Source: a virus. Taken from it: 15,656 nucleotides of DNA. The stretch is taken from UHGV virus genome UHGV-0056727; one strand, given 5' to 3'. This document shows positions 1 to 15,148 of this stretch, piece by piece. Within the stretch, counting starts at the first letter, position 1, and the number at the start of each line of letters is the position of its first letter. Made by a program: the position numbers and the translations under genes. The notes beneath the pieces are model-generated. The model was not told the DNA's origin. It saw only the letters and a list, made by a program, of their open reading frames with translations, and ran no database searches.

Positions 1-1
1 G

Positions 2-382
2 TCGGATGTTATCCGGTGGTGGCGAAAACAACCTTTTGATTTGCAAATCCCGGAGCACCTAGGGAACTGTGTTTTTTGCATCAAAAAGTCAACGCAAAAG
101 CTGGGGCTTGCATGTAAAGACGAACCTGGTCTGATGCGGGTTTTTAATGAACTGGTTACAGGTAAACACGTCCGGGATGGTCACCGAAAGACAAATAAAG
201 ACGTTATGTACCGTGGTCATCTGAGCCTTGACGGGATTGCCAGAATGTATGCCGACAGCGACTACAGAAATTTGTATCAGGCGATGGTGCAAGCCAGGCG
301 ATTCGATACCGGCTCGTGTTCAGAGTCATGTGAAATCTGGGGTGATCAATTGGAGTTGAAATTCGAAGAGGTGGTGGCATGA
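2..382 (+). CDS. Hypothetical protein, C-terminal part (5' end lies upstream of the window); contains CxxC and CxxxC motifs
   Basis: Frame 2 is open from nt 2 with no stop before TGA 380-382, which overlaps the next gene's ATG (ATGA at 379-382). Function not recognised. Confidence 0.5.
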   Translation, partial: SDVIRWWRKQPFDLQIPEHLGNCVFCIKKSTQKLGLACKDEPGLMRVFNELVTGKHVRDGHRKTNKDVMYRGHLSLDGIARMYADSDYRNLYQAMVQARRFDTGSCSESCEIWGDQLELKFEEVVA

Positions 383-1083
383 CAACCAAAATTAACTATC
401 AGGCACTACGTGAGATAGCAAAACAGGCAACACAGGGCGAATGGGTCGCGTTTATTTCGACGGGTACAGGTACGTATGCTGTGCATACGCCCGGTGATAA
501 ACGATGTGAAGATGTTATCAAATGGACCGGCTTTGATGGGCTGAAAAACGCAGAGAACAACGCTCGTTATGTTGCCGCATTCAACCCAAAGGTTGCACTG
601 GAGCTACTTGGTGAAATTAAGCGCCTGGAGGACACAAATATTGATGCTATGTGCCGAATAGCACCGCTTGAGACTAAGCTCGCGGCGCTGGTGGCAGAGA
701 ACGCCGGGCTGAAACACGCAATGGCCGTAACTCTTGAGCATGTGTCGGTCACGGATGCAGGGCAGGCTGGTGTTGCTGCAATGATTATCAACGATGCCCT
801 ACACCACAGCGAAACTCCAGCTACCGATGCTTTTCTGGCTGAAATTCGTGCGGAAGCACGCAACGAGGGGATTAACTATACCGCCAGCCGTCTTGCTGCT
901 GCGTTCAATCACGGATTTATCAATAAGTCTTTGCGTGAAGTTTTCGACGTTACACGCATGATTTTGTCAGCGAAAGAAGAGTTGGCTAATGAAGCGCATC
1001 CGATTGATGGCCTGTCTGGTGAATATGCGGAGAAATCCCTTGAAGAATGGGCGGAACAGATTCGCAAAGGAAGCAGCCAGTGA
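379..1083 (+). CDS. Ead/Ea22-like family protein (234 aa)
   Basis: N-terminus MTTKINYQALREIAKQATQGEW... is the signature I associate with Ead/Ea22-like phage proteins. ATG overlaps the upstream stop. Shares identical 21-23-nt blocks with the ORFs at 2378 and 2662. Confidence 0.7.
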   Translation: MTTKINYQALREIAKQATQGEWVAFISTGTGTYAVHTPGDKRCEDVIKWTGFDGLKNAENNARYVAAFNPKVALELLGEIKRLEDTNIDAMCRIAPLETKLAALVAENAGLKHAMAVTLEHVSVTDAGQAGVAAMIINDALHHSETPATDAFLAEIRAEARNEGINYTASRLAAAFNHGFINKSLREVFDVTRMILSAKEELANEAHPIDGLSGEYAEKSLEEWAEQIRKGSSQ

Positions 1084-1370
1084 ATATCGACACGACAATA
1101 ACGATCGATACGCTCCTAAATACCGGTCTGGCACTTCTCGGTTGGCTTTACATCATGTCCCGTACATGGCGATGGCTGGGTTCCATTTTCCTAAAACAGT
1201 GGAAAAAACGGCGCAAACAGGAACTACGCCAGAAGGCATTAGAAGCGTTCTATGACGCATTTGAGCTTAGCCGTATTGAACCAGGTACAACAGCCAGGAT
1301 AGCGACAAAAGGCGACCTGATGATAGTGATGTTCCGACAGGAGAGAGCAGAGAAAGGGGAATCAGCATGA
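1080..1370 (+). CDS. Small membrane protein (~96 aa from GTG 1080; alternative ATG at 1047), one predicted TM helix followed by a basic segment
   Basis: GTG 1080 overlaps the upstream stop (GTGA) and the stop overlaps the next ATG (ATGA 1367-1370). Hydrophobic stretch LLNTGLALLGWLYIM then WKKRRKQELRQK. Confidence 0.4.
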   Translation: MNIDTTITIDTLLNTGLALLGWLYIMSRTWRWLGSIFLKQWKKRRKQELRQKALEAFYDAFELSRIEPGTTARIATKGDLMIVMFRQERAEKGESA

Positions 1371-2080
1371 AATTTTCCAAATTTTCTGAGTTGGTGAATC
1401 GTATTTTGTCCAACAACCACAGCCATCGTCGCGATATGGATGTAACAATCGTTGTTCATTCGCCTGGCAGCATTGGTTCAACACCTTCAGTTGAGGTTCA
1501 GTCAATTCACGCTGGTTTTGATTGGGATTCCGGGAAAGTGCTTATTTTCCCATCACAGCCACTGACCACGCTAACACCAGAACAGATTACTGATATCACT
1601 GATAGTGTGCGCAAAGGTCAGTCTTGGCACGCATTTCAGGAATACAAGAAGCATCAAGAGCAGTTGGAAAAATTGTCGATTGAACTGGATGCCGCAAAAC
1701 AGCGCATTGCAGAGCTGGATGGTAATCGCACGGCGCTGGCAGTGGAGAATGCCTCAATGAAGCTGTTTATCAGGGGCTGTTGCTACGTGTTTGATGGCCA
1801 GCAGGATGAAATATCTGATGCGTATATCTGCGCAACAGACGGAGGGATGCCGCAAATTCCAGCCACCGACGCTTTCCTGGCTGAAGTTCGGGCGCAGGGG
1901 GTGGATGCTGCTATAGAAGCTGCAAAAAATCTGGTGGCCCAAGAATATGAGTATAAGGATTTCAAAGCGGCGCAGAGTGATTGCTGTATGCACCCTGGTT
2001 CAGACCGGGTAGGGAAGGTTGAAATGACTGAGTGGTTAGTTGACTTTGCTGCCCAGCTTCGCAAAGGAGGCAACCAGTGA
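1367..2080 (+). CDS. Hypothetical protein (237 aa) with a C-terminal module paralogous to that of the 379..1083 protein
   Basis: ATG with upstream AAGGGGA RBS. C-terminal block ...TDAFLAEVRAQG...QLRKGGNQ parallels ...TDAFLAEIRAEA...QIRKGSSQ of the first Ead-like protein. Confidence 0.65.
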   Translation: MKFSKFSELVNRILSNNHSHRRDMDVTIVVHSPGSIGSTPSVEVQSIHAGFDWDSGKVLIFPSQPLTTLTPEQITDITDSVRKGQSWHAFQEYKKHQEQLEKLSIELDAAKQRIAELDGNRTALAVENASMKLFIRGCCYVFDGQQDEISDAYICATDGGMPQIPATDAFLAEVRAQGVDAAIEAAKNLVAQEYEYKDFKAAQSDCCMHPGSDRVGKVEMTEWLVDFAAQLRKGGNQ

Positions 2081-2376
2081 CTGTATGTCTTATTGATAAA
2101 CGTCGACGTGGGCAACAAATACCATCTGTTGAAATGCCGAATCACACATGGTTTTGCGTACTTGATATCGATGGTATGGATACGTTGGTTGACACTCGTC
2201 ATTACTGCGATACCGCAACAGCTACTCCGGCGAAAGCAAAGAAAATGGCTGCTCTGATAGAAAACTGGACTCCACCTGATGGTTGGTGCAATGGGAATGA
2301 TCGAGATTGGCACGAAAAAATGAAGGGCTATATCTGCGATTTTTTACGTAAATGCAACGGCTTCAGGGTGATGTGA
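2077..2376 (+). CDS. Small Cys-containing hypothetical protein (99 aa), GTG start
   Basis: GTG 2077 overlaps the upstream stop (GTGA), the same junction architecture as at 1080. The stop is 1 nt before the next ATG. Confidence 0.4.
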   Translation: MTVCLIDKRRRGQQIPSVEMPNHTWFCVLDIDGMDTLVDTRHYCDTATATPAKAKKMAALIENWTPPDGWCNGNDRDWHEKMKGYICDFLRKCNGFRVM

Positions 2377-2377
2377 T

Positions 2378-2665
2378 ATGACCAAAATTAACTATCAGGC
2401 ACTGCGTGAGGCGGCAGAACGTGCAATTCCGGCAATGGAACGTCTGTCAATGTTGCCAGTTGATGATGATTTGTTAAGTGAACAGGAACTTAAAGATTAC
2501 GGTGTGGATATTGATGCGCTCAACGCCTTCAAATTTCTGGCCGGACCAGAAACCGTGCTGGCGCTGCTGGATGAAAACGAAAGACTGTGTCGCGAGCTGA
2601 TAGCTCGTAATGGTGAGATTGAAGGGCTTCGGAAGTGGGCAGAAGAACGGGAGATGCAACCATGA
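2378..2665 (+). CDS. Short Ead-like N-terminal-domain protein (95 aa)
   Basis: ATG 2378 preceded by GGGTGA. N-terminus MTKINYQALREAAERA... A 23-nt block (2381-2403) is identical to 385-407. Confidence 0.6.
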   Translation: MTKINYQALREAAERAIPAMERLSMLPVDDDLLSEQELKDYGVDIDALNAFKFLAGPETVLALLDENERLCRELIARNGEIEGLRKWAEEREMQP

Positions 2666-3591
2666 TGACTTTTACCAGCGAACAATTAGCTACCTTACGT
2701 AAGATAGCGCAACAGGCAACACAGGGCGAATGGCGTGCATTCATCTCGCCGGACACTGGTACATATGCGGTGCATACGCCGGGGGATGAACGTTGCGGAG
2801 ACATTATCAAATGGCCTGGCTTTGACGGCCAGAAAAATGCAGAGAACAACGCAGAATTTATCGCAGCTTTCAACCCTAAATTAGTGCAGACACTGCTGGA
2901 TGAACGGGAAAGAAACCAGCAATACATCAAACGCCGCGACCAGGAGAACGAGGGGATTGCGCTTACGGTTGGGAAGCTGCGTGTTGAGCTTGAAGCAGCA
3001 AAATCAAAACTCAACGAGCAGCGTGAATATTACGAGGGAGTAATCGCGGATGGAAGTAAGCGCATAGCAGAACTGGAAAAACAATGCGCCGAATGGGAGC
3101 GAAAAGCATTAAGCAACTTTGAAGAGTGTGCTGCGATGGCTGAACGTATCGAAGAGATGCAGACAAAATCTGCACCAGATTCGTTTGGCATCATCGGTGA
3201 AAATATTCGAACACAGGACAATCGAATAACGTCAGATCCCATGTTTTGTGTGTATCAAAAGCGCGAAATCGCTGTTGATGCTGATTATGACCATGACCGG
3301 ATTGTCTGGGTTGACGAAGATGGCAATGAAGCCAATAAACGCCATAGTCGTCGTCTCGAGCTACTTCATGAAAACTTTCGAGAGCCACCAGAAAAATGGC
3401 GGCGCGTTGCTGTGAAAGATATTGATGAATTCGTTACCTGCTGTTTCACCGAACAGGGTTGTAAAGACTACCTGGCAGTCAATGGTCACAATCTTCGCTT
3501 GCCATTTATATATGTAAAAAGCGGTTTCAGGAACGCTGAATATATCGGCATAAGAAACTGGCTTGCTGGCATTCGCATCAAAGGAGAGTGA
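2662..3591 (+). CDS. Ead/Ea22-like family protein (309 aa from ATG 2662) with a coiled-coil middle and a distinct C-terminal domain
   Basis: ATG 2662 overlaps the upstream stop (ATGA). N-terminal ...QQATQGEWRAFISPDTGTYAVHTPGDERCGDIIKWPGFDGQKNAENNAEFIAAFNPK is about 70% identical to the 379 protein. Identical 21-mer at 2714-2734 and 424-444. Confidence 0.7.
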   Translation: MMTFTSEQLATLRKIAQQATQGEWRAFISPDTGTYAVHTPGDERCGDIIKWPGFDGQKNAENNAEFIAAFNPKLVQTLLDERERNQQYIKRRDQENEGIALTVGKLRVELEAAKSKLNEQREYYEGVIADGSKRIAELEKQCAEWERKALSNFEECAAMAERIEEMQTKSAPDSFGIIGENIRTQDNRITSDPMFCVYQKREIAVDADYDHDRIVWVDEDGNEANKRHSRRLELLHENFREPPEKWRRVAVKDIDEFVTCCFTEQGCKDYLAVNGHNLRLPFIYVKSGFRNAEYIGIRNWLAGIRIKGE

Positions 3592-3592
3592 T

Positions 3593-4110
3593 ATGGCGTT
3601 AACACACCGCGAACTCTGTCAGATTGCGTACAAGTTCCTTAAGCGCAACGGGTTCAAGGTTTGCTTTCATGACCGCTTTATAGCTGTAACCAGTACCGGA
3701 GAACAGCCAGATGCTATGGGATTCAGAAATTCAGCATCATGCTTGATAGAGGCGAAGTGTTCTCGTGCTGACTTGTTGGCAGATAGAAAAAAGCGTTTCC
3801 GTAAAAATCCGTCTCTTGGAATGGGCGACTGGCGATATTCTTTATTAGTGAGCCGGGAATTATTTCAGTTGAGGATTTACCTCCCGGCTGGGGATTACTT
3901 CACGTTGTTAACGGAAGAGTACGGAAAGTACATGGATGGCCCAAGGGGAATTGCTGTTGGGGTAATCCTGACGATAAGCCATTTACTGGGAATAAGCAGG
4001 TTGAATGCGATTACATGTTATCTGCATTAAGGCGCATGGAGCTAAGAGGACACCTTAATGAAATATATGACGGTGTAATTGTTAATAAGAAAGAAGGAAA
4101 CGCGGCATGA
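3593..4110 (+). pseudogene. Putative PD-(D/E)xK-motif protein apparently interrupted by a frameshift (frame 2 from ATG 3593, continuing in frame 1 to stop 4108-4110)
   Basis: Strong RBS AAGGAGAG before ATG 3593. PD...EAK motif in frame 2 (EQPDAMGFRNSASCLIEAKCS). Frame 1 is open 3805-4110, has no usable start, and ends on the ATGA overlap with the next gene. The annotated frame-2 ORF ends at 4030, leaving a 77-nt gap. Confidence 0.4.
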
Positions 4111-4463
4111 CCACTATTACCGACAAAGAACTGATTAAAGAAATCAAAGAGCGCATAGGCAGCTTGGACGTTCGAGACAATATTGAGCGCCGTGCTTATG
4201 AAATTGCACTGGCATCGCTGGAAGCAGAACCGATAGCGTGGGAATGCGGTGAAAACATAATCCTGTTTAACCCTGACACAGTTGAAGCATACGCAAAACG
4301 TGCGGAAATATCACCTAAACCACTATTCTCCGCGCCGCCAGCGCTGGTAGTGCCTGATAAGTTGCCGCGTGAATACAGAAACGGTTGGCCTCTTGCGTAT
4401 AGTGATTATGCTGAAGGCTGGAACGACTGCCGCGAAGCCATGCTTCAGGGAGATAAATCATGA
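4107..4463 (+). CDS. Hypothetical acidic protein (118 aa)
   Basis: ATG/stop overlaps with both neighbours (ATGA at 4107 and 4460). Confidence 0.65.
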   Translation: MTTITDKELIKEIKERIGSLDVRDNIERRAYEIALASLEAEPIAWECGENIILFNPDTVEAYAKRAEISPKPLFSAPPALVVPDKLPREYRNGWPLAYSDYAEGWNDCREAMLQGDKS

Positions 4464-4819
4464 TTAATCGTATCAAGCTGGAGCACATCCTCGAATATGC
4501 CAGGCAGCAGAGGCATATTGGTCAGCATTGTAAAATTCCACCAGGAGATATGGTTGAAATCATGGAGATTGCCATGCGCAAGGCTGGCAACTCTCCGGTA
4601 ACTCCGGATGGTTGGATAAGCTGTAGTGAGCGAATGCCGAATACCAAAACAGCCGTTCTTGTTGCCGTGGAGTTTGACAGGAAAGGTGACTGGCGAATGA
4701 AATGGGCTACTTACATCCCGGGGCATCCTGACGCTAATGATGGGTGGATAATTCCTGGTGCGTCGTGGAAACCGTCACACTGGATGCCGCTACCAGAACC
4801 GCCGCAGGAGGCAAAATGA
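4460..4819 (+). CDS. DUF551-like phage protein (119 aa)
   Basis: C-terminal W...RMP...VLVA...W...SHWMPLPEPP pattern, which I recall as DUF551. Coupled to both neighbours. Confidence 0.65.
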   Translation: MINRIKLEHILEYARQQRHIGQHCKIPPGDMVEIMEIAMRKAGNSPVTPDGWISCSERMPNTKTAVLVAVEFDRKGDWRMKWATYIPGHPDANDGWIIPGASWKPSHWMPLPEPPQEAK

Positions 4820-5076
4820 TGGATGTAAAAGAGAAGGTTTTGCAGGTGATACGTTCCCGTGCTGCCCTGCAAGAGAAAGCTCTCGGCGGGGAATATCCAT
4901 TCACGATAGCAACCTGGAATCTGCGGTTGGCAATGGAGAAGGAATTTCCTGATGAAGAATGGCGTTCGGCAGATTTGCGCAAAATTCTTATGGAGATGGC
5001 TAAAGATGGAACAGTATCCAAAGATACCCATGCCAGCCGGATTGGTCAGGCGGTATGGAGACTGGAGGTGAGATAA
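4816..5076 (+). CDS. Hypothetical protein (86 aa)
   Basis: ATG 4816 with AGGAGG RBS 7 nt upstream, overlapping the upstream stop. The ORF-track start at 4744 is a GTG extension in the same frame. Confidence 0.6.
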   Translation: MMDVKEKVLQVIRSRAALQEKALGGEYPFTIATWNLRLAMEKEFPDEEWRSADLRKILMEMAKDGTVSKDTHASRIGQAVWRLEVR

Positions 5077-5159
5077 TGAGCTGGCCTGAAGCATTCGCAA
5101 CGGTAGGAATTGTGATGGCGGCAGCACTGGGTTTGTATTCAATTTGTCGCTGGTGGTAA
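5076..5159 (+). CDS. Small hydrophobic peptide (27 aa, MSWPEAFATVGIVMAAALGLYSICRWW)
   Basis: ATG overlaps the upstream TAA (TAATG). GGAGG RBS 8 nt upstream. Single hydrophobic helix. Too short to be in the ORF track. Confidence 0.3.
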   Translation: MSWPEAFATVGIVMAAALGLYSICRWW

Positions 5160-5161
5160 CG

Positions 5162-5395
5162 ATGGGAAAATTAACTTTTGTAGTCGAATTTGAGGATGGT
5201 AAAGAGCCACCTGTTAGCGCCAATCTTGATGTTGCTGGTGGCAGGCTTGTTTCGGTTCTATTTGGTGACTACCGAGATGACTTCTTCCAACCAGAAGAAG
5301 TTGATGTAGTGCGAGAGGCATTAAACGAGTTAAGTGTTGATAACGATGATGCTCATGCGGAAATCATCCAAAAAATGGAACTGCTAACTCACTAA
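5162..5395 (+). CDS. Small strongly acidic protein (77 aa, about 18 D/E against 6 K/R)
   Basis: ATG 5162 lies 2 nt after the stop of the peptide ORF, with GGTGG upstream. The track start at 5144 is a TTG extension. Confidence 0.5.
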   Translation: MGKLTFVVEFEDGKEPPVSANLDVAGGRLVSVLFGDYRDDFFQPEEVDVVREALNELSVDNDDAHAEIIQKMELLTH

Positions 5396-5443
5396 ATTAT
5401 CAATTATGGTGCTATCACCTACGACACCGAGAGAAAATTTATA

Positions 5444-5566
5444 ATGTCAAAAGTAAATGTTTTGATTTTTTCAGCAATTGTTGGCTTTGGTTTTACTGCC
5501 GGAGTGCAGATTTATATTACGTGGAAAAAAATCATCAACTACGCATGGAGTTGTTTTATTAAGTGA
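5444..5566 (+). CDS. Possible small single-TM peptide (40 aa) in an AT-rich spacer
   Basis: ATG 5444, hydrophobic core VLIFSAIVGFGFTAGVQIYI then WKKIINYAW. No convincing RBS, so this could equally be a non-coding promoter region. Confidence 0.25.
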   Translation: MSKVNVLIFSAIVGFGFTAGVQIYITWKKIINYAWSCFIK

Positions 5567-5573
5567 GGTAAGT

Positions 5574-5867
5574 ATGTGGAGAGGTAATAATCATGGCAAA
5601 AGCCAGATGATACTTACCGAATATAAGCTAGACCACAAAACCAATAAATCACGCTCAGTATATTTGCTCCGGCACAATAGTCGCGTAAGAAATACCGTGC
5701 TGGAACAAAATCTGACAGTTGAAATGGATAATTACGGGGGCTTCAAGCCAGCAATTTCGCTTGATGATTTTCCTCGTGGTTTAAGCGAAAGAGAAGCAAT
5801 GCTGAAATTAGCAGAATGGCTACAAAGATTAAGCATTGCTATTGAAGATAACTGGTCTGAACCTTAA
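5574..5867 (+). CDS. Hypothetical protein (97 aa)
   Basis: ATG 5574 with GAGGT RBS 4 nt upstream. The track ORF 5478..5867 is the same frame from an upstream TTG. Confidence 0.45.
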   Translation: MWRGNNHGKSQMILTEYKLDHKTNKSRSVYLLRHNSRVRNTVLEQNLTVEMDNYGGFKPAISLDDFPRGLSEREAMLKLAEWLQRLSIAIEDNWSEP

Positions 5868-5873
5868 ATTTAT

Positions 5874-6248
5874 ATGATGACACTAAAACATTTTCTTGAC
5901 CGCCCATTATGGGCGGCAGCCGCAGGCTATGACTTTAATTATATGGATTGCATGTCTTATACTGCCAATGCATACGACCATTCGTTCAGCCTGCTGTTTA
6001 ATTCTTTAAGAATATTGCCGGAAACAGAAGTTGGAGAGCTTCATTTATGGCTATTGGGCTTTATCGCGGCTGTCGTTGGTATTGCTGTATGGCCTTTTAT
6101 TTTCTGGCTGGTGGCTGTTGTAGTGTGGTTTAAGTGCAAGACATACCGGAAAAAGTATTTCTTAGGTGATGGAATGACTGATATTGCCAAAATGAACATT
6201 GAAAAATGGACTAAGGAATGTGAAAAGAAATGGCGCAAAAAGAAATGA
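5874..6248 (+). CDS. Membrane protein (124 aa) with a roughly 30-residue hydrophobic segment and a polybasic C-terminus
   Basis: Segment LHLWLLGFIAAVVGIAVWPFIFWLVAVVVWF followed by KCKTYRKKY...KKWRKKK. AT-rich coding sequence, no clear RBS. Confidence 0.4.
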   Translation: MMTLKHFLDRPLWAAAAGYDFNYMDCMSYTANAYDHSFSLLFNSLRILPETEVGELHLWLLGFIAAVVGIAVWPFIFWLVAVVVWFKCKTYRKKYFLGDGMTDIAKMNIEKWTKECEKKWRKKK

Positions 6249-6871
6249 CCAGAATCACTGAAGAGCGTATATCAGAGATTATTTCCCGTATCGAAATGTA
6301 TGGTCACGGTGCTGGATATACGGCAGATGAAGTATTGGAAATAGCCCAGCAGATGCTGGCCTTGAGACAAAAAGAGCAACATGAAAGTAATACGTGTAGA
6401 TTTAATTTTGAGCAGTGGCTGGAACAGCAACGCGGAAAAATCGATGTGGACTGTGGTTGTGTGTCCACTGAAACATTCATGCACTGGCTGCGGGTAGCTT
6501 ACGAGGCTGGCAACTATCCGGATAGTTCGGTGCCAGCGCCAGGAAAGGGCGTCACCGGTGAACGTATCCGCATTAAGCCGCATGTTTATCGCGAACTGGT
6601 TAACCGTCTCCACGATACAGCGATCAAGTGTGCTGGCACCCAGCAATTACGAGAAAAAATTAGCCGTGTTTTGGGCGACGTTATTACGCCAGATCATCAT
6701 AAACAAGTCGAGAAAAGTGGCCTGGAAAGATGTCACCTTGAGGCGGCATTAAACATTAAGCCAGGGCATACGCTTGGCATTATTGATGCACTATTGGTTC
6801 ATAAGATGGCCAGGGCTTTATTGCCGCTGGTGGCTGATAAGCAAGAGGCGGGCCATGCCAACGAAAGCTGA
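6245..6871 (+). CDS. Hypothetical protein (208 aa from ATG 6245; in-frame ATG at 6230 also possible)
   Basis: ATG 6245 overlaps the upstream stop (ATGA). No recognisable domain. Confidence 0.55.
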   Translation: MTRITEERISEIISRIEMYGHGAGYTADEVLEIAQQMLALRQKEQHESNTCRFNFEQWLEQQRGKIDVDCGCVSTETFMHWLRVAYEAGNYPDSSVPAPGKGVTGERIRIKPHVYRELVNRLHDTAIKCAGTQQLREKISRVLGDVITPDHHKQVEKSGLERCHLEAALNIKPGHTLGIIDALLVHKMARALLPLVADKQEAGHANES

Positions 6872-7139
6872 GTTACAGGCGCGCATAGAGATTCTTGAAA
6901 AAGAGAATGCGAGTCTAAAAGGAATGCTGGCGCGGGCTGAAAGGGAATTATCAGGCAAATTATTGCCAGAAGAACTGCCACCAGCAGATATACCAGATCG
7001 AGTGTCCCGGTGGATGAAGTCTTTTGGTTTACCGTGGGAGGCTTTTTGGTGCTACGAGCATCGCAGATGGTGTGATGAACTTGATAGCAGTTTCCCCTAC
7101 TTTGCGGAAGGGAACACCTGCCCTGAGTGTAGGAGGTAG
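6855..7139 (+). CDS. Small protein (94 aa) with an N-terminal coiled-coil-like segment and a C-terminal CxxH...C...CxxC putative zinc-binding motif
   Basis: ATG 6855 preceded by GAGGCGG. The track ORF 6774..7139 is an upstream extension of the same frame. Motif WCYEHRRWC...CPEC. Confidence 0.5.
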   Translation: MPTKAELQARIEILEKENASLKGMLARAERELSGKLLPEELPPADIPDRVSRWMKSFGLPWEAFWCYEHRRWCDELDSSFPYFAEGNTCPECRR

Positions 7140-7143
7140 CGCG

Positions 7144-7401
7144 ATGTTTCGTCCTCGTCCAATACCGCCGAAAATAACTAATGGCTATCAGCCGAATACT
7201 CCAGAAATACAAGGGAGCGAGGGGCTTAAACCACCAGCACCACGTATTCCGCCTGTAGCAAGGAACGTATCATTACGACGAGAGTTAATATTAGCCTTGT
7301 CGCCCGTTCTGGCTGCCCGCCAGGATTGGGTAAGTAATGATGACCTGGCAGAAAAAATCACATCGCTGGTGGATAAAATTCTGCATAAAGCTGATCTCTG
7401 A
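7144..7401 (+). CDS. Hypothetical protein (85 aa), Pro-rich N-terminus
   Basis: ATG 7144 with AGGAGGT RBS. Last gene before a terminator hairpin. Confidence 0.55.
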   Translation: MFRPRPIPPKITNGYQPNTPEIQGSEGLKPPAPRIPPVARNVSLRRELILALSPVLAARQDWVSNDDLAEKITSLVDKILHKADL

Positions 7402-7412
7402 TCACCATGCTA

Positions 7413-7443
7413 AAATCCCCTCAATTCACAGAGGGGATTTTTG
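7413..7443 (+). terminator. Rho-independent terminator-like hairpin (stem ATCCCCTC / GAGGGGAT, 8-nt loop, followed by TTTTT)
   Basis: Perfect 8-bp GC-rich stem plus a U-run 12 nt after the stop at 7399-7401. The 3' stem arm GAGGGG is also the only SD-like sequence for the ATG at 7447. Confidence 0.55.
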
Positions 7444-7446
7444 TCT

Positions 7447-7713
7447 ATGTTGCATAGAGTTTTATGGAAAAGCGTTATTGTCGGCGCGATACTGGCTATA
7501 TCTGGGTGTGCAATGGTGCAATACAACGACGGTGAAAAGGTAAGCATACAGTCAGATGGTTGGTATGGCCTGGATAGCCTGCAAAAAACCGCAGATAAAG
7601 CCTGTCAGCAATATGGGAAGTCTAAAGCAGTATATCAGCATAGCGCGAACGCTAACCCTCATCTAGCGCCCGGTTCGGGTGTTCAGAATACCATCTGGAA
7701 ATGTGAGCCTTAA
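7447..7713 (+). CDS. Putative lipoprotein (88 aa; signal peptide with lipobox LAISG-C)
   Basis: N-terminus [21 protein letters not shown] is a classic lipoprotein signal. It sits where P1 has a small gene next to hot (possibly lxr, symbol not certain). Confidence 0.6.
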
Positions 7714-7715
7714 AT

Positions 7716-7967
7716 ATGAGCGACTGGAATATTGCAGCTAAAAGTCAGGAAGAACGGGATAAGGTTAACGTTGATCTGGCTGCCAGCGGTGTGGCGTACA
7801 AAGAGCGATTGAACATACCTGTCATAGCTGAACAGGTAGCCCGCGAGCAACCAGAGAATCTGCGCACCTATTTCATGGAACGGTTACGGCACTATCGGCA
7901 GTTAAGCCTCCAGTTGCCAAAAGGGAGCGATCCGGTGTATCAGAACGAGGATGCACCAAAAAAATAA
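7716..7967 (+). CDS. hot: Hot, homolog of DNA polymerase III theta subunit (HolE)
   Basis: Block [43 protein letters not shown] closely matches E. coli theta as I recall it. Position immediately upstream of humD as in P1. Confidence 0.85.
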
Positions 7968-8052
7968 CGGCAAGATGGGGGAGAAATGTGATTAGCCCCC
8001 AGCGTGGCGCGCCTACAAACCCCGCTTTCACAAACTATGCCTTTTCAATGTA

Positions 8053-8072
8053 TACTGTATGAATAAACAGTA
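8053..8072 (+). promoter_or_regulatory. LexA (SOS) box TACTGTATGAATAAACAGTA upstream of humD
   Basis: CTGT-N8-ACAG core with flanks close to the SOS-box consensus TACTGTATATATATACAGTA. Lies 19 nt upstream of the humD ATG, overlapping a TATACT -10-like hexamer. Confidence 0.8.
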
Positions 8073-8090
8073 TCATTGAGGTAAAACGCT

Positions 8091-8480
8091 ATGGGCTTCC
8101 CTTCTCCTGCGGCGGATTATGTTGAAAGCCGAATTTCTCTTGATCAGCAGATAATTAGACATCCTTCAGCGACCTACTTCATGCGGGCAGCTGATAGCCA
8201 TCACCGTGAGGGAATATTGCAGGGTGCTTTGCTGGTGGTTGATTCCTCGCTTACTCCGGTTGATGGTTCTCTGCTTGTGTGCGCTATGGAGGGTGAATAT
8301 CGCATAAAGAGATACAGGAAGTATCCGCGCCAGCACCTGGAGGACTTAAGCACCGGGAAGAAAGAGGCGTTACCAGTAGATGACGATGGATACACGGGCA
8401 GTAATGCTGTTTTTGGTGTGATCACTCATGTCATCAATGATGCCCGAAGTGGGGAATTTGATGATTGTCCGGTTATTTAA
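8091..8480 (+). CDS. humD: HumD, UmuD'-like translesion-synthesis accessory protein (129 aa)
   Basis: Starts GFPSPAADYVE..RI.L.Q.I.HPSATYF, which corresponds to the processed (UmuD') N-terminus of E. coli UmuD. GAGGT RBS and LexA box upstream. Confidence 0.9.
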   Translation: MGFPSPAADYVESRISLDQQIIRHPSATYFMRAADSHHREGILQGALLVVDSSLTPVDGSLLVCAMEGEYRIKRYRKYPRQHLEDLSTGKKEALPVDDDGYTGSNAVFGVITHVINDARSGEFDDCPVI

Positions 8481-8515
8481 GCTGCAAAGTGCTGGTGCTT
8501 TATGCCTGTGAAGTT

Positions 8516-8549
8516 TATAATTGTGTACACATAACGAGTACACGAGGTG
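8516..8549 (+). promoter_or_regulatory. phd-doc promoter/operator: TATAAT -10 followed by palindrome TGTGTACACA and half-palindromic GAGTACAC
   Basis: Perfect 10-bp palindrome at 8522-8531 and a related site at 8536-8543, between the -10 and the SD. Consistent with autoregulatory Phd binding sites. Confidence 0.6.
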
Positions 8550-8552
8550 TTT

Positions 8553-8774
8553 ATGCAATCCATTAACTTCCGTACCGCGCGTGGCAACCTTTCTGAAGTG
8601 CTCAACAATGTTGAAGCCGGGGAAGAGGTTGAAATCACCCGCAGAGGCCGTGAGCCAGCAGTAATTGTCAGCAAGGCTACTTTCGAAGCCTACAAAAAAG
8701 CGGCGCTGGATGCTGAATTTGCATCCCTGTTTGACACCCTGGACTCCACCAACAAGGAACTGGTTAACCGATAA
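8553..8774 (+). CDS. phd: Phd antitoxin (prevent host death), 73 aa
   Basis: [49 protein letters not shown]... matches my recollection of P1 Phd. Stop overlaps the doc ATG (TAATG). Confidence 0.92.
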
Positions 8775-9154
8775 TGAGGCATATATCACCGGAAGAACTT
8801 ATTGCGCTTCATGATGCGAATATAAGCCGCTACGGCGGCCTGCCGGGAATGTCAGATCCGGGTAGGGCAGAGGCCATTATCGGGAGAGTTCAGGCCAGAG
8901 TTGCCTACGAAGAGATCACCGACCTTTTCGAAGTCTCCGCCACCTACCTGGTGGCTACGGCGAGAGGGCATATATTCAATGATGCCAATAAGCGTACCGC
9001 GCTAAACAGTGCGCTGCTATTTCTACGCCGTAACGGGGTGCAGGTATTTGATTCACCTGAACTGGCAGACCTTACCGTAGGCGCTGCGACTGGCGAGATA
9101 TCTGTATCTTCTGTCGCCGACACGTTACGTAGATTGTATGGTTCTGCGGAGTAG
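8774..9154 (+). CDS. doc: Doc toxin (death on curing; Fic-fold kinase), 126 aa
   Basis: [25 protein letters not shown]... includes the Fic-like HxFx(D/N)(A/G)NKR motif (HIFNDANKR). Coupled to phd. Confidence 0.92.
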
Positions 9155-9158
9155 ATTA

Positions 9159-9338
9159 ATGGCACGCAAATACAACAAGTTGTCCCGTGAAGCGTTAAAG
9201 ATGCTTCTTGATGGCGTGAGTCGCCGCAAGGTAAAGCAATACCTGGTTGGTAAGCAAATTGGTGCCAGGACAGCTATTGCTGTGTTATGCCGTCAGGAAA
9301 TGGTTGTGCTTAAACAGAGAATGCCGGGCAGCAGATAA
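9159..9338 (+). CDS. pdcA: Small basic protein (59 aa), position of P1 pdcA
   Basis: ATG 9159 with GGAG upstream, immediately after doc. Symbol assigned by synteny only. Confidence 0.5.
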   Translation: MARKYNKLSREALKMLLDGVSRRKVKQYLVGKQIGARTAIAVLCRQEMVVLKQRMPGSR

Positions 9339-9365
9339 AGCCCAATCAGTGATTAAAGGTGTGAT

Positions 9366-10409
9366 GTGAAAGCCGTAATTACTCCATTTGTACAGAAAGA
9401 GCTTGGCCTCGCCACGTTCAAAGTGGATCAGGAGGTCAGAAAGCTGGTGGAGGCTGGCCGTAAATTTATTATGGAGCCGGTGCCGCGTGAGTTAATCGAG
9501 CACATGGAAGACGGCCTCGTTGTTACCGAGCAAACCATGGCAACAAATGAGGCGTTGCAGCCGTTTTTTAACAGCGATGAACTGTTTCGCCGTATTGGTG
9601 GAATTGACGCGCTGGTGGCGTGGTTGCGTAGGAAAGAGGGTCAATGCCAGGCCGCAGATCGTAGTTGGTGTGACAACCATATTGTCCACGCTGAACGAGA
9701 CAATAGCGCGGTGTTGTTGTGCTGGCATCACGATAACCATTACCGGATGCGTGGTTTTAATGAGCTGAAAGAAACGCTGCACAATAATCGCGTTAACTGG
9801 ATACTGGATGTCGCCCGTCAGGAAATGGGCCTTTCAAATAGCCATGATTTAAGTATTCAGGAGCTGTGCTGGTGGGCTTTCATGCGCAACATGATGCACC
9901 TGATGCCGGAAGAAGTCTGCCGCATATCAATAAATAAGATGAAGGCTACTCCGCAGGATAGCGGACCTCTGAAAGAGGCGGATATTCGCCCGTATGACGA
10001 TCGCGCTACAGCATATGTTCAGATGATGGAAGAACGCGCCGCGCCGATGCGTGCAAAAGTATGCCCTGTGGATGTTGACTCCGACCCTGGCATGGCGCAT
10101 TTCAAAATACCAAAACTGCAATCGCTAAAATTACCTGAGTACATGGACTTTGTTGCTTCCCGTCCATGCTGTGGGTGTGGAGCTGCGGGAGCTGGCGCTC
10201 ACATTACGCCTTATATCGTTCGTCATAGTCGATTATGCGCGCATGACATTTACGCAATTCCTCTGTGCCAGTCATGCCAGCGTGATATTGAGCGTGACCG
10301 CGATAATTGGGAGAAGACGCACGGTAGGTTGGCGATGCATCAACGATTGTTCTTTGATTACGCGCTTGGAGTGGGCGTTATCACAAGTCATTCGTCGAGT
10401 GTTAGATAA
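9366..10409 (+). CDS. pdcB: PdcB-position protein (347 aa), GTG start, Cys/His-rich C-terminal segment
   Basis: GTG 9366 with AAAGGTG RBS. C-terminal CCGCG...H...CAH...CQSC cluster. Symbol by synteny. Confidence 0.6.
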
Positions 10410-10410
10410 A

Positions 10411-10427
10411 ATTGCTCTAATGTATTG
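10411..10427 (+). promoter_or_regulatory. C1 operator-like 17-mer ATTGCTCTAATGTATTG upstream of lpa
   Basis: 13/17 match to the asymmetric C1 operator consensus ATTGCTCTAATAAATTT, starting 2 nt after the pdcB stop. Confidence 0.55.
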
Positions 10428-10497
10428 CTATTTCTTTAATCTAGGGTGTTATATTCCACGTTGATTAGTTGACATGGGCTAATCAGTAGGTGACAGG

Positions 10498-10950
10498 ATG
10501 TTACTTAACTGGCAGGGACGCCACTTCATGGAAATAAATCACTCACGAATAACATCGTACGAGATTGCGGATTACATGATCCGCACTAAATCTCTTCTAT
10601 CAGCGAAAGAACTCGCAGCAATTCTTGAAAAGGAATACCCGCATCTGGATGTCGATAAGCGCGATGTTTATCTGCGCTTAAAGGCTATCGCTGTGTCTAA
10701 GTATTCGTCTGTTTTGATAGATGACAGTACACGCCCACGTAGATTTCAGATCCACTCTCTGAATCCTGAATTCTTTCGCCGTAGCCGCGCTCCGCGCCGG
10801 TTTGATGAAAAACTCCAGAACGAACTCTATATGACGCAGGACGAAAAGGAACGCCGGGAGCACCAGCCTTGGGTAATGGCGCGTCAACTTTTCAATAAGG
10901 TGGCCCGTCAGCACCGTCATTACGGTAATGCCACATCCGCACGTATCTGA
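10498..10950 (+). CDS. lpa: Lpa (late promoter activator, gp10)-position protein, 150 aa (alternative ATG at 10528)
   Basis: ATG 10498 with AGGTGA RBS. Sits between pdcB and pacA as in P1, preceded by a C1 operator-like site. Symbol by synteny. Confidence 0.6.
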   Translation: MLLNWQGRHFMEINHSRITSYEIADYMIRTKSLLSAKELAAILEKEYPHLDVDKRDVYLRLKAIAVSKYSSVLIDDSTRPRRFQIHSLNPEFFRRSRAPRRFDEKLQNELYMTQDEKERREHQPWVMARQLFNKVARQHRHYGNATSARI

Positions 10951-11035
10951 TTGATTGCTTGCCCGTTCCGGGCCTTTTGACATGTGACTTTCGTTACCCT
11001 CGCGTCAAAAAGAGTTTTTACGAAAGGAAGCATAA

Positions 11036-12229
11036 GTGACCTGGGACGATCACAAGAAGAATTTTGCTCGCCTGGCGCGAGATGGTGGTTACACCATCGC
11101 ACAGTATGCCGCCGAGTTTAATCTTAACCCTAATACCGCACGTCGTTATCTCCGTGCCTTCAAAGAAGACACCAGGACTACGGACAGCCGCAAGCCAAAT
11201 AAGCCAGTCAGGAAGCCACTAAAAAGCATGATCATTGATCACTCTAATGATCAACATGCAGGTGATCACATTTCGGCTGAAATAGCGGAAAAACAAAGAG
11301 TTAATGCCGTTGTCAGTGCCGCAGTCGAGAATGCGAAGCGCCAAAATAAGCGCATAAATGATCGTTCAGATGATCATGACGTGATCACCCGCGCCCACCG
11401 GACCTTACGTGATCGCCTGGAACGCGACACCCTGGATGATGATGGTGAACGCTTTGAATTCGAAGCTGGCGATTACCTGATAGATAACGTTGAAGCGCGG
11501 AAGGCCGCGCGCGCTATGTTGCGTCGGTCCGGGGCCGATGTTCTGGAAACCACTCTTCTGGAAAAGTCTCTTTCTCATCTCCTTATGCTGGAGAACGCCA
11601 GGGATACGTGTATTCGCCTAGTGCAGGAAATGCGCGATCAGCAAAAAGACGATGATGAAGGTACTCCGCCTGAATACCGTATCGCGAGCATGCTAAACAG
11701 CTGTTCCGCGCAGATAAGCAGCCTGATCAACACCATTTACAGCATCCGGAATAACTATCGAAAAGAAAGCCGGGAGGCGGAAAAGCACGCTTTATCTATG
11801 GGGCAAGCTGGCATTGTTAAGCTGGCATACGAACGAAAGCGTGAAAATAACTGGTCAGTGCTGGAAGCGGCTGAATTCATCGAGGCGCATGGAGGAAAAG
11901 TGCCGCCCCTGATGCTGGAGCAAATCAAAGCCGATCTGCGTGCTCCTAAGACCAATACCGATGATGAGGAAAACCAAACAGCATCTGGCGCTCCATCACT
12001 TGAAGATCTGGATAAAATCGCGCGAGAACGGGCCGCCAGCCGCCGCGCTGATGCGGCATTGTGGATTGAGCATCGTAGAGAAGAAATTGCCGATATCGTC
12101 GATACAGGTGGTTATGGTGATGTCGATGCGGAAGGCATATCAAACGAAGCATGGCTTGAACAGGATCTGGACGAAGACGAGGAGGAAGACGAAGAAGTTA
12201 CCCGCAAACTGTACGGGGATGATGATTAA
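11036..12229 (+). CDS. pacA: PacA, small terminase / pac-recognition subunit (397 aa), acidic C-terminal tail
   Basis: GTG 11036 with AAGGAAG RBS. N-terminus [10 protein letters not shown]... The pac hexamer array lies inside the 5' part of the gene, as in P1. Stop overlaps the pacB ATG. Confidence 0.85.
11229..11387 (+). other. pac packaging site: 4 + 3 TGATC(A/G) hexamers, each carrying a Dam GATC, flanking the cleavage region
   Basis: TGATCA at 11229, 11236, 11248 and 11263; TGATCG at 11359; TGATCA at 11371 and 11382. This is the arrangement described for P1 pac. Confidence 0.8.
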
Positions 12230-13713
12230 TGGCCAGAAGTTGCGTAACGGACCCACGTTGGCGCGAGCTGGTGGCGCTATATCGTTATGACTGGATTGCG
12301 GCCGCTGATGTGTTGTTTGGGAAGACACCAACCTGGCAGCAGGATGAGATCATTGAGTCCACGCAGCAGGACGGCAGTTGGACAAGTGTGACCTCCGGCC
12401 ATGGTACTGGTAAATCGGATATGACGAGTATCATTGCAATACTCTTCATCATGTTTTTCCCCGGCGCTCGCGTCATTCTGGTCGCTAACAAAAGACAGCA
12501 AGTCCTTGATGGTATTTTCAAATACATAAAGAGCAATTGGGCTACTGCTGTTAGCAGATTCCCGTGGTTGTCGAAGTATTTCATTCTTACAGAAACGTCT
12601 TTTTTTGAGGTGACTGGCAAGGGTGTTTGGACAATATTGATAAAGTCCTGTCGCCCCGGAAATGAGGAGGCGTTGGCTGGTGAACACGCCGATCATCTCT
12701 TGTATATCATCGACGAAGCGTCGGGTGTGAGTGATAAAGCATTCAGTGTGATAACAGGTGCGCTGACCGGTAAGGATAACCGTATTCTGCTTCTTTCCCA
12801 GCCTACGCGACCTTCAGGCTATTTCTACGATTCACACCACAGACTAGCTATTCGCCCGGGAAATCCTGATGGATTGTTTACTGCGATAATACTGAATAGT
12901 GAAGAATCTCCGCTTGTAGATGCAAAATTTATACGAGCAAAACTTGCGGAGTATGGCGGTCGTGATAACCCCATGTACATGATCAAAGTACGTGGTGAAT
13001 TTCCCAAATCTCAAGATGGCTTTCTTCTTGGTCGTGATGAGGTTGAGCGGGCGACGCGGCGAAAGGTCAAGATTGCCAAAGGATGGGGCTGGGTTGCATG
13101 TGTTGACGTTGCTGGTGGCACAGGACGAGATAAGTCCGTTATTAATATCATGATGGTGTCCGGCCAGCGAAATAAACGCCGTGTAATCAACTATCGTATG
13201 CTGGAATACACAGACGTTACAGAAACGCAGTTAGCCGCCAAGATTTTCGCAGAATGTAACCCAGAACGGTTCCCGAACATAACCATAGCTATTGATGGCG
13301 ATGGCTTGGGGAAATCGACGGCTGATCTAATGTACGAACGCTATGGCATTACCGTCCAGCGTATCCGCTGGGGTAAAAAGATGCACAGCCGTGAAGATAA
13401 AAGCCTTTATTTCGATATGCGCGCTTTCGCGAATATTCAGGCGGCAGAAGCTGTAAAATCAGGGCGTATGAGGCTTGATAAGGGGGCTGCGACTATAGAG
13501 GAAGCATCAAAGATACCGGTAGGGATAAATTCCGCAGGTCAATGGAAGGTGATGTCAAAGGAAGATATGAAGAAAAAACTCAACCTGCACTCACCGGACC
13601 ATTGGGATACATATTGTTTCGCTATGTTGGCGAACTATGTTCCCCAAGATGAAGTGCTTAGCGTCGAAGACGAAGCGCAGGTTGATGAAGCTCTGGCATG
13701 GCTTAATGAATAA
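12229..13713 (+). CDS. pacB: PacB, large terminase subunit (494 aa)
   Basis: Walker A-like [14 protein letters not shown] motif, and the length and position expected for P1 PacB. Confidence 0.9.
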
Positions 13714-13738
13714 CAATTTGACCATGCCGGATGGAAAA

Positions 13739-14590: not shown

Positions 14591-14612
14591 TGATCCTCCT
14601 CCAGAATTGACA

Positions 14613-14655
14613 TGGCCAACAACTCACAGCGGATTACACTGGGAGTTGTTGGCCA
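14613..14655. repeat. Perfect 13-bp inverted repeat TGGCCAACAACTC-N17-GAGTTGTTGGCCA in the c1 leader
   Basis: Read directly from the sequence. Lies between the coi stop and the c1 start, with no U-run after it on the transcribed strand. Confidence 0.6.
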
Positions 14656-14684
14656 CCATTATAGAAGGATCCAACGAAAATAAT

Positions 14685-14701
14685 AGATTTATTAGTGCAT
14701 T
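14685..14701 (-). promoter_or_regulatory. C1 operator-like site (14/17 on the minus strand) at the coi stop / c1 leader
   Basis: Plus-strand AGATTTATTAGTGCATT compared with the reverse-complement consensus AAATTTATTAGAGCAAT. Confidence 0.45.
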
Positions 14702-14910
14702 TATTGTGAGTCTGGCTGGTTAGTGGCCATGAGATATTCGATTGTGTCAGTGAGATCATCCAGGTCGTCTTGGGTGATGCGGTACTCCTGATTGGATATC
14801 TTTGAGTAGTGTTCAGCAATGGCGCGGGCAGCGTCGGTTTCGGCGGGGTCTACAGATAAAGCGTTAGAGCAATGTCTAACGTCGTCGATGGTTGGTGGAA
14901 TGAAAGCCAT
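14701..14910 (-). CDS. coi: Coi, C1 inactivator (69 aa)
   Basis: 69-aa acidic protein immediately upstream of c1 in the same orientation, as in P1 immC. Confidence 0.85.
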   Translation of the reverse strand: MAFIPPTIDDVRHCSNALSVDPAETDAARAIAEHYSKISNQEYRITQDDLDDLTDTIEYLMATNQPDSQ

Positions 14911-15148
14911 AATTATGCCTCACTGTATTGACAACACAGAGCCTGAAGCTCTGACCTACTGTTTCACCCATGATCCATGCTGGGGTAATCTAACAACATT
15001 GCGCTGTGTGTAAGATGAGCAATGCATAGCTGTAATGCCGTTGTATAAGGTTTCCCTGTTTGCTCATTTCCTTCTGAGCCGCTCTACAACGCTGAAGACA
15101 CATTAAATAGTGAATCCAAAGTCGTATTACGAAACGGCGGCAAAACTA

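Follow-up and report, generated by a model that had tools for sequence, protein, structure and literature searches.

Ea22 of phage lambda and of Shiga toxin (Stx) phages promotes lysogeny; its activity and tetrameric state are known from experiments with lambda and Stx phages (PMC7093339, PMC10834534). The protein comprises a variable N-terminus, a coiled coil, and a variable C-terminal domain with a terminal K/R-G-E (PMC7093339, PMC10834534, PMC8614690), which has been listed as a conserved motif of unknown significance (PMC7093339). A mosaic exo-xis region and, in Stx phages, domain variability, partial duplication, and splitting of ea22 were described (PMC7093339, PMC8614690), the partial duplications and split genes being found in 933W (PMC8614690). 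According to the boundary-sequence model of phage mosaicism, for which lambdoid work is cited, homologous recombination takes place at short conserved intergenic sequences (PMC3233612). P1-like phage-plasmids contain a variable region H, extending from pmgT to humD (PMC9603915), and gene flow between phage-plasmids and phages as well as P1-like variable regions have been reported (PMC9603915, PMC10879196). Here, a row of four related open reading frames (ORFs) on such a P1-like element was analyzed, which occupies positions 379-3591 on the plus strand of a 15,656-nucleotide (nt) stretch of the virus genome UHGV-0056727 (this whole stretch is referred to as the window).

The explanation that fits the data best, and to which we assign a probability of about 0.8, is that four genes of the Ea22 superfamily were assembled by recombination with the prophage gene pool of enterobacteria, that exchange took place at short conserved islands, and that the connectors joining the genes are portable. 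The preliminary description of this DNA, made from the letters alone, had proposed an array of Ead/Ea22-like paralogs with shuffled modules. All four ORFs (at 379, 1367, 2378, and 2662) exist as described there and have modules in common, which are arranged as follows:

379..1083, plus strand: ORF379, Ead/Ea22-like protein of 234 aa (Pfam PF13935 7.9e-25, 88.5 bits; phrog_368 3e-70)
385..411, plus strand: leader island copy 1, TKINYQALRE, holding the exact 23-mer at 385-407
407..615, plus strand: type-B N-terminal module copy 1 (QATQGEW...NAENNA...AFNP), holding the 23-mer at 422-444 (76% nt identity, 73% aa identity over 73 residues)
812..852, plus strand: PATDAFLAEIRA island copy 1, common to ORF1367 (85% identical to 1854-1894; BLASTP E 6e-7; breakpoints at 810-850)
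1057..1083, plus strand: type-1 connector copy 1 (tail codons, AAGGA Shine-Dalgarno, GTG overlapping TGA)
1080..1370, plus strand: DUF4752 gene, 96 aa, GTG start (Pfam 2.4e-42; RefSeq homologue WP_001018057.1 of 291 nt)
1367..2080, plus strand: ORF1367, 237 aa (no Pfam match; phrog_368 1.6e-75; phrog_6026 1.2e-53)
1854..1894, plus strand: PATDAFLAEVRA island copy 2 (85% identical to 812-852; clustering of breakpoints)
2054..2080, plus strand: type-1 connector copy 2 (AAGGAGG, 6-nt spacer, GTG overlapping TGA)
2077..2376, plus strand: DUF7739 gene, 99 aa, GTG start (Pfam 1.5e-21; RefSeq homologue WP_000215167.1 of 300 nt)
2378..2665, plus strand: ORF2378, 95 aa, read as a truncated 5′ remnant of ea22 (Pfam 2.1e-18, 67.7 bits)
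2576..2904, plus strand: 329-nt segment flanked by CTGCTGGATGAA at 2564-2575 and 2893-2904
2662..3591, plus strand: ORF2662, 309 aa, complete Ea22-like gene (Pfam 2.9e-36, 125.5 bits)
2696..2904, plus strand: type-B N-terminal module copy 2, holding the exact 23-mer at 2711-2733
2905..3078, plus strand: lambda-type coiled-coil module (RERNQQYIKRRDQENE...RIAELE; similarity to lambda; breakpoints at ~3000 and 3070-3080)
3079..3567, plus strand: W-type C-terminal domain, joined to at least nine N-terminal modules in other phages
3568..3595, plus strand: type-2 connector GGCATTCGCATCAAAGGAGAGTGAtATG (GIRIKGE tail, AAGGAG Shine-Dalgarno, stop, 1 nt, ATG)

The Pfam scores of ORF379, ORF2378, and ORF2662 were all above the 27-bit gathering score of Ead_Ea22 (PF13935). 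ORF1367 had no Pfam match and is, by this hidden Markov model, not a member, so that, by Pfam, the family assignment originally made for the whole array held for three of the four ORFs. It was tied to the family through phrog_368, which it has in common with ORF379, and through a BLASTP match to ORF379 (E 6e-7); taken together, the sequence matches place all four ORFs in the Ea22 superfamily. ORF379 is composed of the leader, the type-B N-domain, a central helix, a Q-type C-terminal domain, and the type-1 tail QIRKGSSQ-stop, and ORF1367 of a distinct N-domain (the first 113 residues match phrog_6026, whose members are about 121 aa long), a helix, a Q′-type C-terminal part, and the type-1 tail QLRKGGNQ-stop. 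ORF2378 contains the leader, a type-A N-module, and the first ~25 residues of a second coiled-coil type (cc2), and ends with EMQP; in ORF2662, the type-B N-domain is followed by a lambda-like coiled coil, the W-type C-terminal domain, and the tail AGIRIKGE. Common to ORF379 and ORF2662 is the type-B N-domain (73% over 73 aa), to ORF379 and ORF2378 only the leader TKINYQALRE, and to ORF379 and ORF1367 the central helix with the PATDAFLAE(I/V)RA island (the source of the BLASTP match), plus the tail at the DNA level (89%). ORF1367 was widespread on contigs of about 90-100 kb. Its N-domain (1367-1700) is small and β-rich; a weak match to a PDB entry for a multi-ubiquitin domain-containing protein (9d59_A; E 0.013 for the full-length protein, 0.11 for the N-domain alone) was taken as chance because an unrelated dehydrogenase scored equally well and because significance fell when the N-domain was used alone.

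Of the four, ORF2662 was 82% identical to lambda Ea22 over 74 aa (the coiled coil; E 6e-38), and its last eight residues, AGIRIKGE, are those of lambda Ea22; ORF2378 was 39% identical over 69 aa (E 2e-8). The terminal K/R-G-E is present in ORF2662 (IRIKGE) and absent from ORF379 (RKGSSQ), ORF1367 (RKGGNQ), and ORF2378 (EMQP). An AlphaFold2 model of ORF2662 consisted of a small N-domain and one long helix (residues 72-169; block-mean predicted local distance difference test [pLDDT] score of 73-93 for residues 71-150), with a mean pLDDT of 55.5 overall and below 50 in the C-terminal domain (28-sequence alignment). The model of ORF1367 was of low confidence throughout (mean pLDDT 46). The alignments behind these models were shallow, homologues being 72-100% identical among the best 120 matches listed. 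A sequence search of the PDB yielded nothing for ORF2662 and matches at chance level only for ORF379. The locus resembles the lambda family in the Pfam match of three of the four ORFs, in the coiled coil and the AGIRIKGE end of ORF2662, and possibly in a three-part layout of its proteins, of which the AlphaFold2 model of ORF2662 showed the N-domain and the stalk; partial duplications and split genes also occur in 933W. It differs in that lambda ea22 lies in the exo-xis region of a lambdoid phage and is expressed early from pL, whereas the window belongs to a P1-like phage-plasmid; in that four members stand in a row, one of them a remnant; in that ORF379 and ORF1367 end with RKGxxQ instead of K/R-G-E, and ORF1367 is without a Pfam domain; and in that the C-terminal domains are unlike the solved one of lambda (no PDB match). 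By analogy, the proteins encoded in the window may act like lambda Ea22, i.e., in favor of lysogeny.

Comparing the module order with that of other P1-like plasmids, as the preliminary description had suggested, revealed differences that are insertions or deletions bounded by repeat islands. The recurrent order, of which many variants exist, is PAPS-reductase gene, (small ORFs), a first Ea22 gene, DUF4752 gene, ORF1367-type gene, (DUF7739 gene), and a second Ea22 gene, the product of which was 142, 205 (with the lambda C-terminal domain), 250, and 294 or 295 aa long across plasmids. In five P1-like plasmids, the second Ea22 gene is a single one, in which the type-A N-module is continued through CTGCTGGATGAA by the lambda-type coiled coil. 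These five lack a 329-nt segment (2576-2904) that the window and pNJS001-1 carry between two copies of CTGCTGGATGAA and that splits the gene into ORF2378 and ORF2662. This split junction was encountered in 8 of 5426 complete Escherichia coli genomes (four P1-like plasmids and four chromosomes), the fused form being the usual arrangement among the 2288 matching genomes. The 3′ part of ORF2378 was 95.7% identical to ea22 of an E2348/69 prophage, and chromosomal copies of ORF2378 are labeled "incomplete, missing C-terminus" by the annotation pipeline PGAP. Because the E2348/69 homologue continues to 165 aa, and because of these labels, ORF2378 is classified as a truncated remnant of an ea22 gene.

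Exchange between types of element was indicated by positions 2552-3595, which were 96% identical to a chromosomal lambdoid prophage (L009) whose remnant carries another upstream N-module; the prophage copy adjoins recombination genes on one side and torI/intS on the other. This block has apparently been transferred between the two types of element, the limits of the transfer lying at the LLDE island and at the 3′ connector. A further rearrangement was found in plasmid pZ0117EC0062-2 (L211), where one Ea22 gene comprises connector, leader, type-A N-module, and W-type domain, and where the first Ea22 gene, the DUF4752 gene, the ORF1367-type gene, and the DUF7739 gene are missing, corresponding to about 2 kb between the leader copies. 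The alignment placed the difference inside the leader island, i.e., in the 23-mer sequence of the window. Each module of the window had relatives of 95-100% identity in other phages and prophages. Across all fetched loci, which were ascertained via the W-type domain or the connector pattern, so that the counts and breakpoint histograms given here are biased (a point that speaks against the explanation preferred here), 155 distinct leader-bearing proteins combined 11 N-module clusters with 22 C-terminal clusters in 58 combinations, with 9-10 partners for each of the main N-modules. On IMG/VR contigs, the W-type C-terminal domain of ORF2662 was joined to at least nine different N-terminal modules. 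When the window was compared with ~210 loci, the ends of high-identity matches clustered at 380-390, 810-850, 1080, 1840-1850, 2060-2080, 2370, and 2410, and further at 2570-2580, 2840-2890, 3000, 3070-3080, 3560-3590, and 4100-4120; the clusters coincide with islands and gene borders. The family itself is very large, as 7983 of the 8000 candidates that were scored matched ORF2662.

The repeats within the window, to which attention had been drawn from the start, could be verified with minor corrections. The two leaders contain the same exact 23-mer (ACCAAAATTAACTATCAGGCACT; 385-407 and 2381-2403). A second repeat had been given as a 21-mer at 424-444 and 2714-2734. Its identity was confirmed but not its length, as it is a 23-mer (AACAGGCAACACAGGGCGAATGG; 422-444 and 2711-2733); of the 21-mer (CAGGCAACACAGGGCGAATGG), the copy at 424-444 was correctly located and the other is at 2713-2733, one position off. 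When 300-3700 was simulated 200 times with a Markov-1 model, the longest exact direct repeat per simulation measured 11.3 nt on average and 16 nt at most, compared with 23 nt twice in the window, which means that the self-identity exceeds chance, as had been supposed. A repeat finder aligned 407-615 with 2696-2904 (76% nt identity), 812-852 with 1854-1894 (85%), 1057-1083 with 2054-2080 (89%), and 2555-2584 with 2884-2913 (80%), and the repeats sit in register inside homologous protein modules. Because 407-615 and 2696-2904 are homologous at 76% identity, an exact run of 23 nt is not very improbable there (chance roughly 0.1, by a rough estimate). Rather than marks of recent conversion, the identical blocks are islands of conservation within homologous genes; the exact repeats represent the best-conserved islands of a mosaic family of very large size and are not recent duplications. 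The genes of the window are alleles from a very large lambdoid gene pool, not locally shuffled paralogs. The idea of recombination was supported for module variants (by the insertions and deletions and the prophage block in relatives) and not for local paralogs shuffling with each other. Within the leader of ORF2662 lies a near-palindrome (GCTACCTTACGTAAGATAGC; 2689-2708) with overlapping 14-nt arms that are 93% complementary, which was also scored as a terminator-like site on the minus strand.

Two types of short connector were distinguished at the gene junctions. Type 1 (...FAAQLRKGGNQ-stop, about 35 nt) reads TTYGCCGCCCAGCTTCGCAAAGGAGGCAACCAGTGA, and type 2 (...AGIRIKGE-stop, about 24-28 nt) reads GGCATTCGCATCAAAGGAGAGTGAnATG; in both, the final codons of the gene upstream are combined with a near-consensus Shine-Dalgarno sequence and with the start codon of the gene downstream, which either overlaps the stop (GTGA) or follows it after 1 nt. 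The observation that two C-terminal versions end alike and are each followed by a GTG-initiated small ORF was correct. Both RKGxxQ ends read (A/C)TTCGCAAAGGA(A/G)GCA(G/A)CCAGTGA, each TGA stop overlaps a GTG start codon (at 1080 or 2077), and the ORFs downstream belong to real families (DUF4752 and DUF7739), their lengths from these starts (291 and 300 nt) being those annotated in RefSeq for the homologues. An in-frame ATG at 1047, within the end of ORF379, would lengthen the DUF4752 protein by 11 residues; the Pfam match begins at residue 18 of this longer form, and the RefSeq homologues start at GTG 1080. The junctions with a Shine-Dalgarno sequence in the window, AAAGGAAGCAGCCAGTGA (1066-1083), AAAGGAGGCAACCAGTGA (2063-2080), and AAAGGAGAGTGATATG (3580-3595), all combine a stop/start overlap or a gap of at most 1 nt with a Shine-Dalgarno sequence 5-9 nt before the start. 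Translationally coupled junctions in general have a stop-start overlap and a Shine-Dalgarno sequence that lies within the gene upstream; different here is that many unrelated gene pairs make use of one and the same junction sequence.

The type-1 pattern (CGCAAAGGAnGCAnCCAGTGA) was found in at least 120 IMG/VR stretches. Its 147 occurrences in the fetched loci preceded GTG-started ORFs of 14 protein clusters, among them Ea22 (76), DUF7739 (14), and DUF4752 (9); other downstream genes, read from the sequence by eye, look like a methyltransferase and a 335-aa PAPS reductase. The upstream proteins formed at least nine clusters, all ending with (Q/E/L)(L/I)RKGG(N/S)Q. The conserved block of about 33-36 nt (TTYGCCGCCCAGCTT plus the pattern), the central 21 nt of which had been used for ascertainment, was flanked by unrelated sequence on both sides, in 46 distinct combinations, and AAGGAG(G) was constantly located 6 nt before the start codon (AAGGAGG before GTG in type 1). 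As for type 2, a single nt separated the stop from ATG in 106 of 147 occurrences of the tail (ATTCGCATCAAAGGAG...), which preceded 22 downstream clusters, and nucleotide diversity rose from 0.01 to 0.5 directly past TGAnATG.

What the tail is conserved for was addressed with 68 Ea22 proteins encoded downstream of type-1 connectors, a set that was chosen without regard to their own tails and contains 20 C-terminal clusters. At least five of the same C-terminal clusters contained both a KGE-TGA-n-ATG and a KGGE-TAATG variant, and the KGGE variant always preceded the same downstream gene (MRVACIG...). In pNJS001-1 (L001), AAGGAG is kept in a different reading frame, giving KENS-stop. Since the variants of the tail track the downstream gene, and since AAGGAG is kept in another frame, the tail would belong functionally to the downstream gene; the data indicate that it is the ribosome-binding site of that gene. 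The codons for K-G-E (AAA-GGA-GAG) contain AAGGAG, and the K/R-G-E motif, published as being of unknown significance (PMC7093339), is probably accounted for by the AGIRIKGE tail. As far as the sequences tell, the junction would mainly be an element for translational coupling and ribosome binding that is common to many unrelated genes. Beyond this, it is conceivable, at somewhat less than even odds, that the connectors form an any-to-any plug-and-socket for accessory genes, from lambdoid prophages to P1-like phage-plasmids of Escherichia and relatives, with K/R-G-E as the footprint of the Shine-Dalgarno sequence. A scan for type 1 in one genome per species (596 Gb) gave four matches, one in Escherichia and three in unrelated environmental metagenome-assembled genomes (L213, L214, and L216). 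With 19 fixed bases and 596 Gb searched, ~4 matches would arise by chance (a rough estimate), so that the latter three are no evidence of a wider distribution, and only a narrow range was shown. An account of K/R-G-E as a connector or ribosome-binding site was not found in the literature, the coverage of which was incomplete.

According to the assembly by recombination favored here, each gene would combine a module at the N-terminus with a long stalk, helical or coiled-coil, and with a C-terminal domain that varies, the parts having been brought together by recombination with the very large gene pool of enterobacterial prophages instead of by local duplication. Exchanges would preferentially start and stop at short islands, i.e., the leader KINYQALRE, the LLDE/coiled-coil start, PATDAFLAE, and the 3′ connectors, and a cassette joined by a connector would immediately be translated in the operon. 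Breakpoint clustering and island-bounded insertions and deletions suggest that the crossovers occur within the islands by homologous recombination, and the junction sequences suggest that translation of connector-linked genes is coupled. The repeats in the window may drive deletions in this element. The length of the connectors (~35 nt) and of the 23-mers is close to the minimum that RecA-type recombination needs to be efficient in E. coli and falls within the range used by phage recombinases. The pattern of connectors and islands fits the model of conserved boundary sequences (PMC3233612), as it includes a ~35-nt block with unrelated flanks in 46 combinations and breakpoints at gene and domain borders. 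In contrast to that model, the block lies in coding sequence and doubles as ribosome-binding site and start/stop overlap, some islands are intragenic, at domain borders, and recombination is here deduced from sequence. No extended homology was seen at the cc2/type-B junction near 2650-2660, which looks as if it had arisen once, by an illegitimate event, and had spread afterwards.

In addition to the ascertainment of the loci, several observations weigh against this explanation or parts of it. The exact match at LLDE is only 12 nt, which is short for RecA-type recombination, so that this junction may owe more to flanking partial homology. Lambda ea22 (L010) ends with the same GGCATTCGCATCAAAGGAGAGTGA, which is followed by GATCGG... 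and no start codon, and 21 of the 147 type-2 tails were without a nearby downstream ORF; hence, the tail is not always used as a ribosome-binding site. (The 3′ end of lambda ea22 is at ~29830-29846 of the record, on the minus strand; other phages have TGA(T/G)ATG and a gene there, and lambda may have lost the downstream cassette.) Conservation is not limited to the Shine-Dalgarno sequence but reaches further upstream (GGCATTCGCATC), possibly owing to a function of the peptide, and a synonymous-site test was powerless, third-position diversity in the W-type domain being only 0.05.

Some of these points also speak for the tails (RKGGNQ, AGIRIKGE, K/R-G-E) being functional C-terminal peptides, e.g., a ligand or a degradation signal, with the Shine-Dalgarno sequence being incidental: lambda retains its tail without an adjacent downstream start, the eight conserved residues are more than a Shine-Dalgarno sequence needs, and the motif was noted as conserved (PMC7093339). 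Nevertheless, we consider this unlikely, given that at least nine unrelated clusters of upstream proteins bear the same type-1 tail, that tail variants follow the downstream gene and not the C-terminal domain, that AAGGAG is kept in the other frame in pNJS001-1, and that the spacing to the start codon is constantly 6 nt. Local tandem duplication of one ea22 gene within a P1-like plasmid, followed by divergence and exchange, with the identical blocks as remnants or gene-conversion tracts, would account for four related ORFs of the same orientation within 3.2 kb and for the exact 23-nt blocks and the stretches of 76-89% identity. It is nonetheless improbable, because the common N-module is only 76% (nt) and 73% (aa) identical, whereas the nearest relatives of each module (95-100%) reside in other phages and prophages, i.e., in unrelated elements; moreover, the same modules occur in 58 combinations elsewhere, and the split junction is identical in chromosomal prophages with other flanks.

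Short repeated sites at module borders and many-to-many pairing would likewise be expected from programmed shuffling (a shufflon, an invertase, or cassette exchange) that uses the repeats as sites and varies the proteins within a population. The repeats are direct, however, and are located within coding sequence; the inverted repeats of 300-3700 are weak and are not found at the flanks of modules, and the variation is between lineages, not within one record. No recombinase family was matched by Pfam for ORFs 41-4030 or by PHROGs for ORFs 379-4819 (ORFs 4744-8000 were outside the family scans), and a dedicated recombinase or reverse transcriptase with specific flanking sites, as in shufflons, invertases, diversity-generating retroelements, and integrons, was absent from the scanned part; programmed shuffling is thus highly improbable. 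Hardly any probability at all is left for the repeats being chance or low-complexity artifacts. Among the repeat-finder families, some short ones (15-20 nt, 75-84% identity) do look like chance, but the simulations never exceeded 16 nt, compared with 23 nt twice, and the repeats are in register in homologous modules.

That the element belongs to the P1 family, as had been assumed, was confirmed by genome matches. Classical P1 matched the window at ~6500-15300 with 98.7% identity, a stretch that holds humD, phd-doc, lpa, pacA, pacB, and c1, and the best matches of the whole window were E. coli plasmids of 92-117 kb; in phage records, DNA of the Ea22 region was found mainly in Stx and other lambdoid phages. 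The neighboring genes of the array and those of the P1 backbone are the following:

1..382, plus strand: 3′ part of a gene with a PAPS-reductase domain, incomplete at the window edge (RefSeq annotation of the homologous loci L001 and L003; sequence)
3593..4110, plus strand: downstream operon gene, frameshifted when compared with intact 171-aa homologues
8091-8480: humD-like S24 peptidase, P1 backbone
8547-9154: phd/doc toxin-antitoxin pair, P1 backbone
9366-10409: DUF968 gene, P1 backbone
10498-10950: lpa, P1 backbone
11036-12229: pacA, P1 backbone
12229-13713: pacB, P1 backbone
13739-14590, minus strand: c1 repressor gene, P1 backbone

The Ea22 region lies in variable region H, upstream of humD-phd-doc, and varies between P1-like plasmids, and blocks of the window are common to chromosomal prophages, in line with the reported gene flow between phages and phage-plasmids. 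On the other hand, Ea22 was not joined with P1-like or phage-plasmid terms in any paper found (coverage of the search was incomplete). The stop of the PAPS-reductase-domain gene overlaps the start of ORF379 (ATGA); the other junctions are GTGA at 1080-1083 and 2077-2080, ATGA at 1367 and 2662, and TGAnATG at 2374-2380 and 3589-3595. A scan of the window revealed no promoter-like site on the plus strand before 8027; terminator-like sites on this strand were weak at 6760-6778 and strong for the first time at 7412-7441. Positions 379-3591 look like part of one long, tightly packed accessory operon on the plus strand, of the lambdoid exo-xis ("ea") gene type. The PADLOC defense models gave no matches.

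The gene at 3593 has a 2-nt insertion near 3835 (CGATATTC versus CGATTC) relative to 97%-identical, intact 171-aa homologues, due to which the ORF stops early, at 4030, and no longer has the usual ATGA overlap with the gene at 4107; 3593-4110 is probably a pseudogene or contains a sequencing error. In pNJS001-1, the closest relative of the window, the ORF379 homologue (L001 3379-4081) is annotated as frameshifted, and in other P1-like plasmids, several small downstream ORFs are marked as frameshifted or partial. The Ea22 region appears to tolerate gene decay.

In summary, the array is a real and well-supported case of ordinary phage mosaicism with one small new insight, not a new kind of system. 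It provides a countable example of phage accessory genes being rebuilt from domain-sized pieces and illustrates the traffic between chromosomal lambdoid prophages and P1-like phage-plasmids. For annotation, genes of the ORF2378 type are to be regarded as remnants, and in many such genes, the ribosome-binding site needed by the following gene has probably shaped the last codons, which calls for caution when tails are read as protein features. The K/R-G-E motif, which the Ea22 literature leaves unexplained, is thereby given an account that can be tested. If the connectors do work as plug and socket, one block would be just long enough for homologous recombination by phage or host and would at the same time keep swapped cassettes expressed, and K/R-G-E would be the footprint of a downstream Shine-Dalgarno sequence and not a protein motif.

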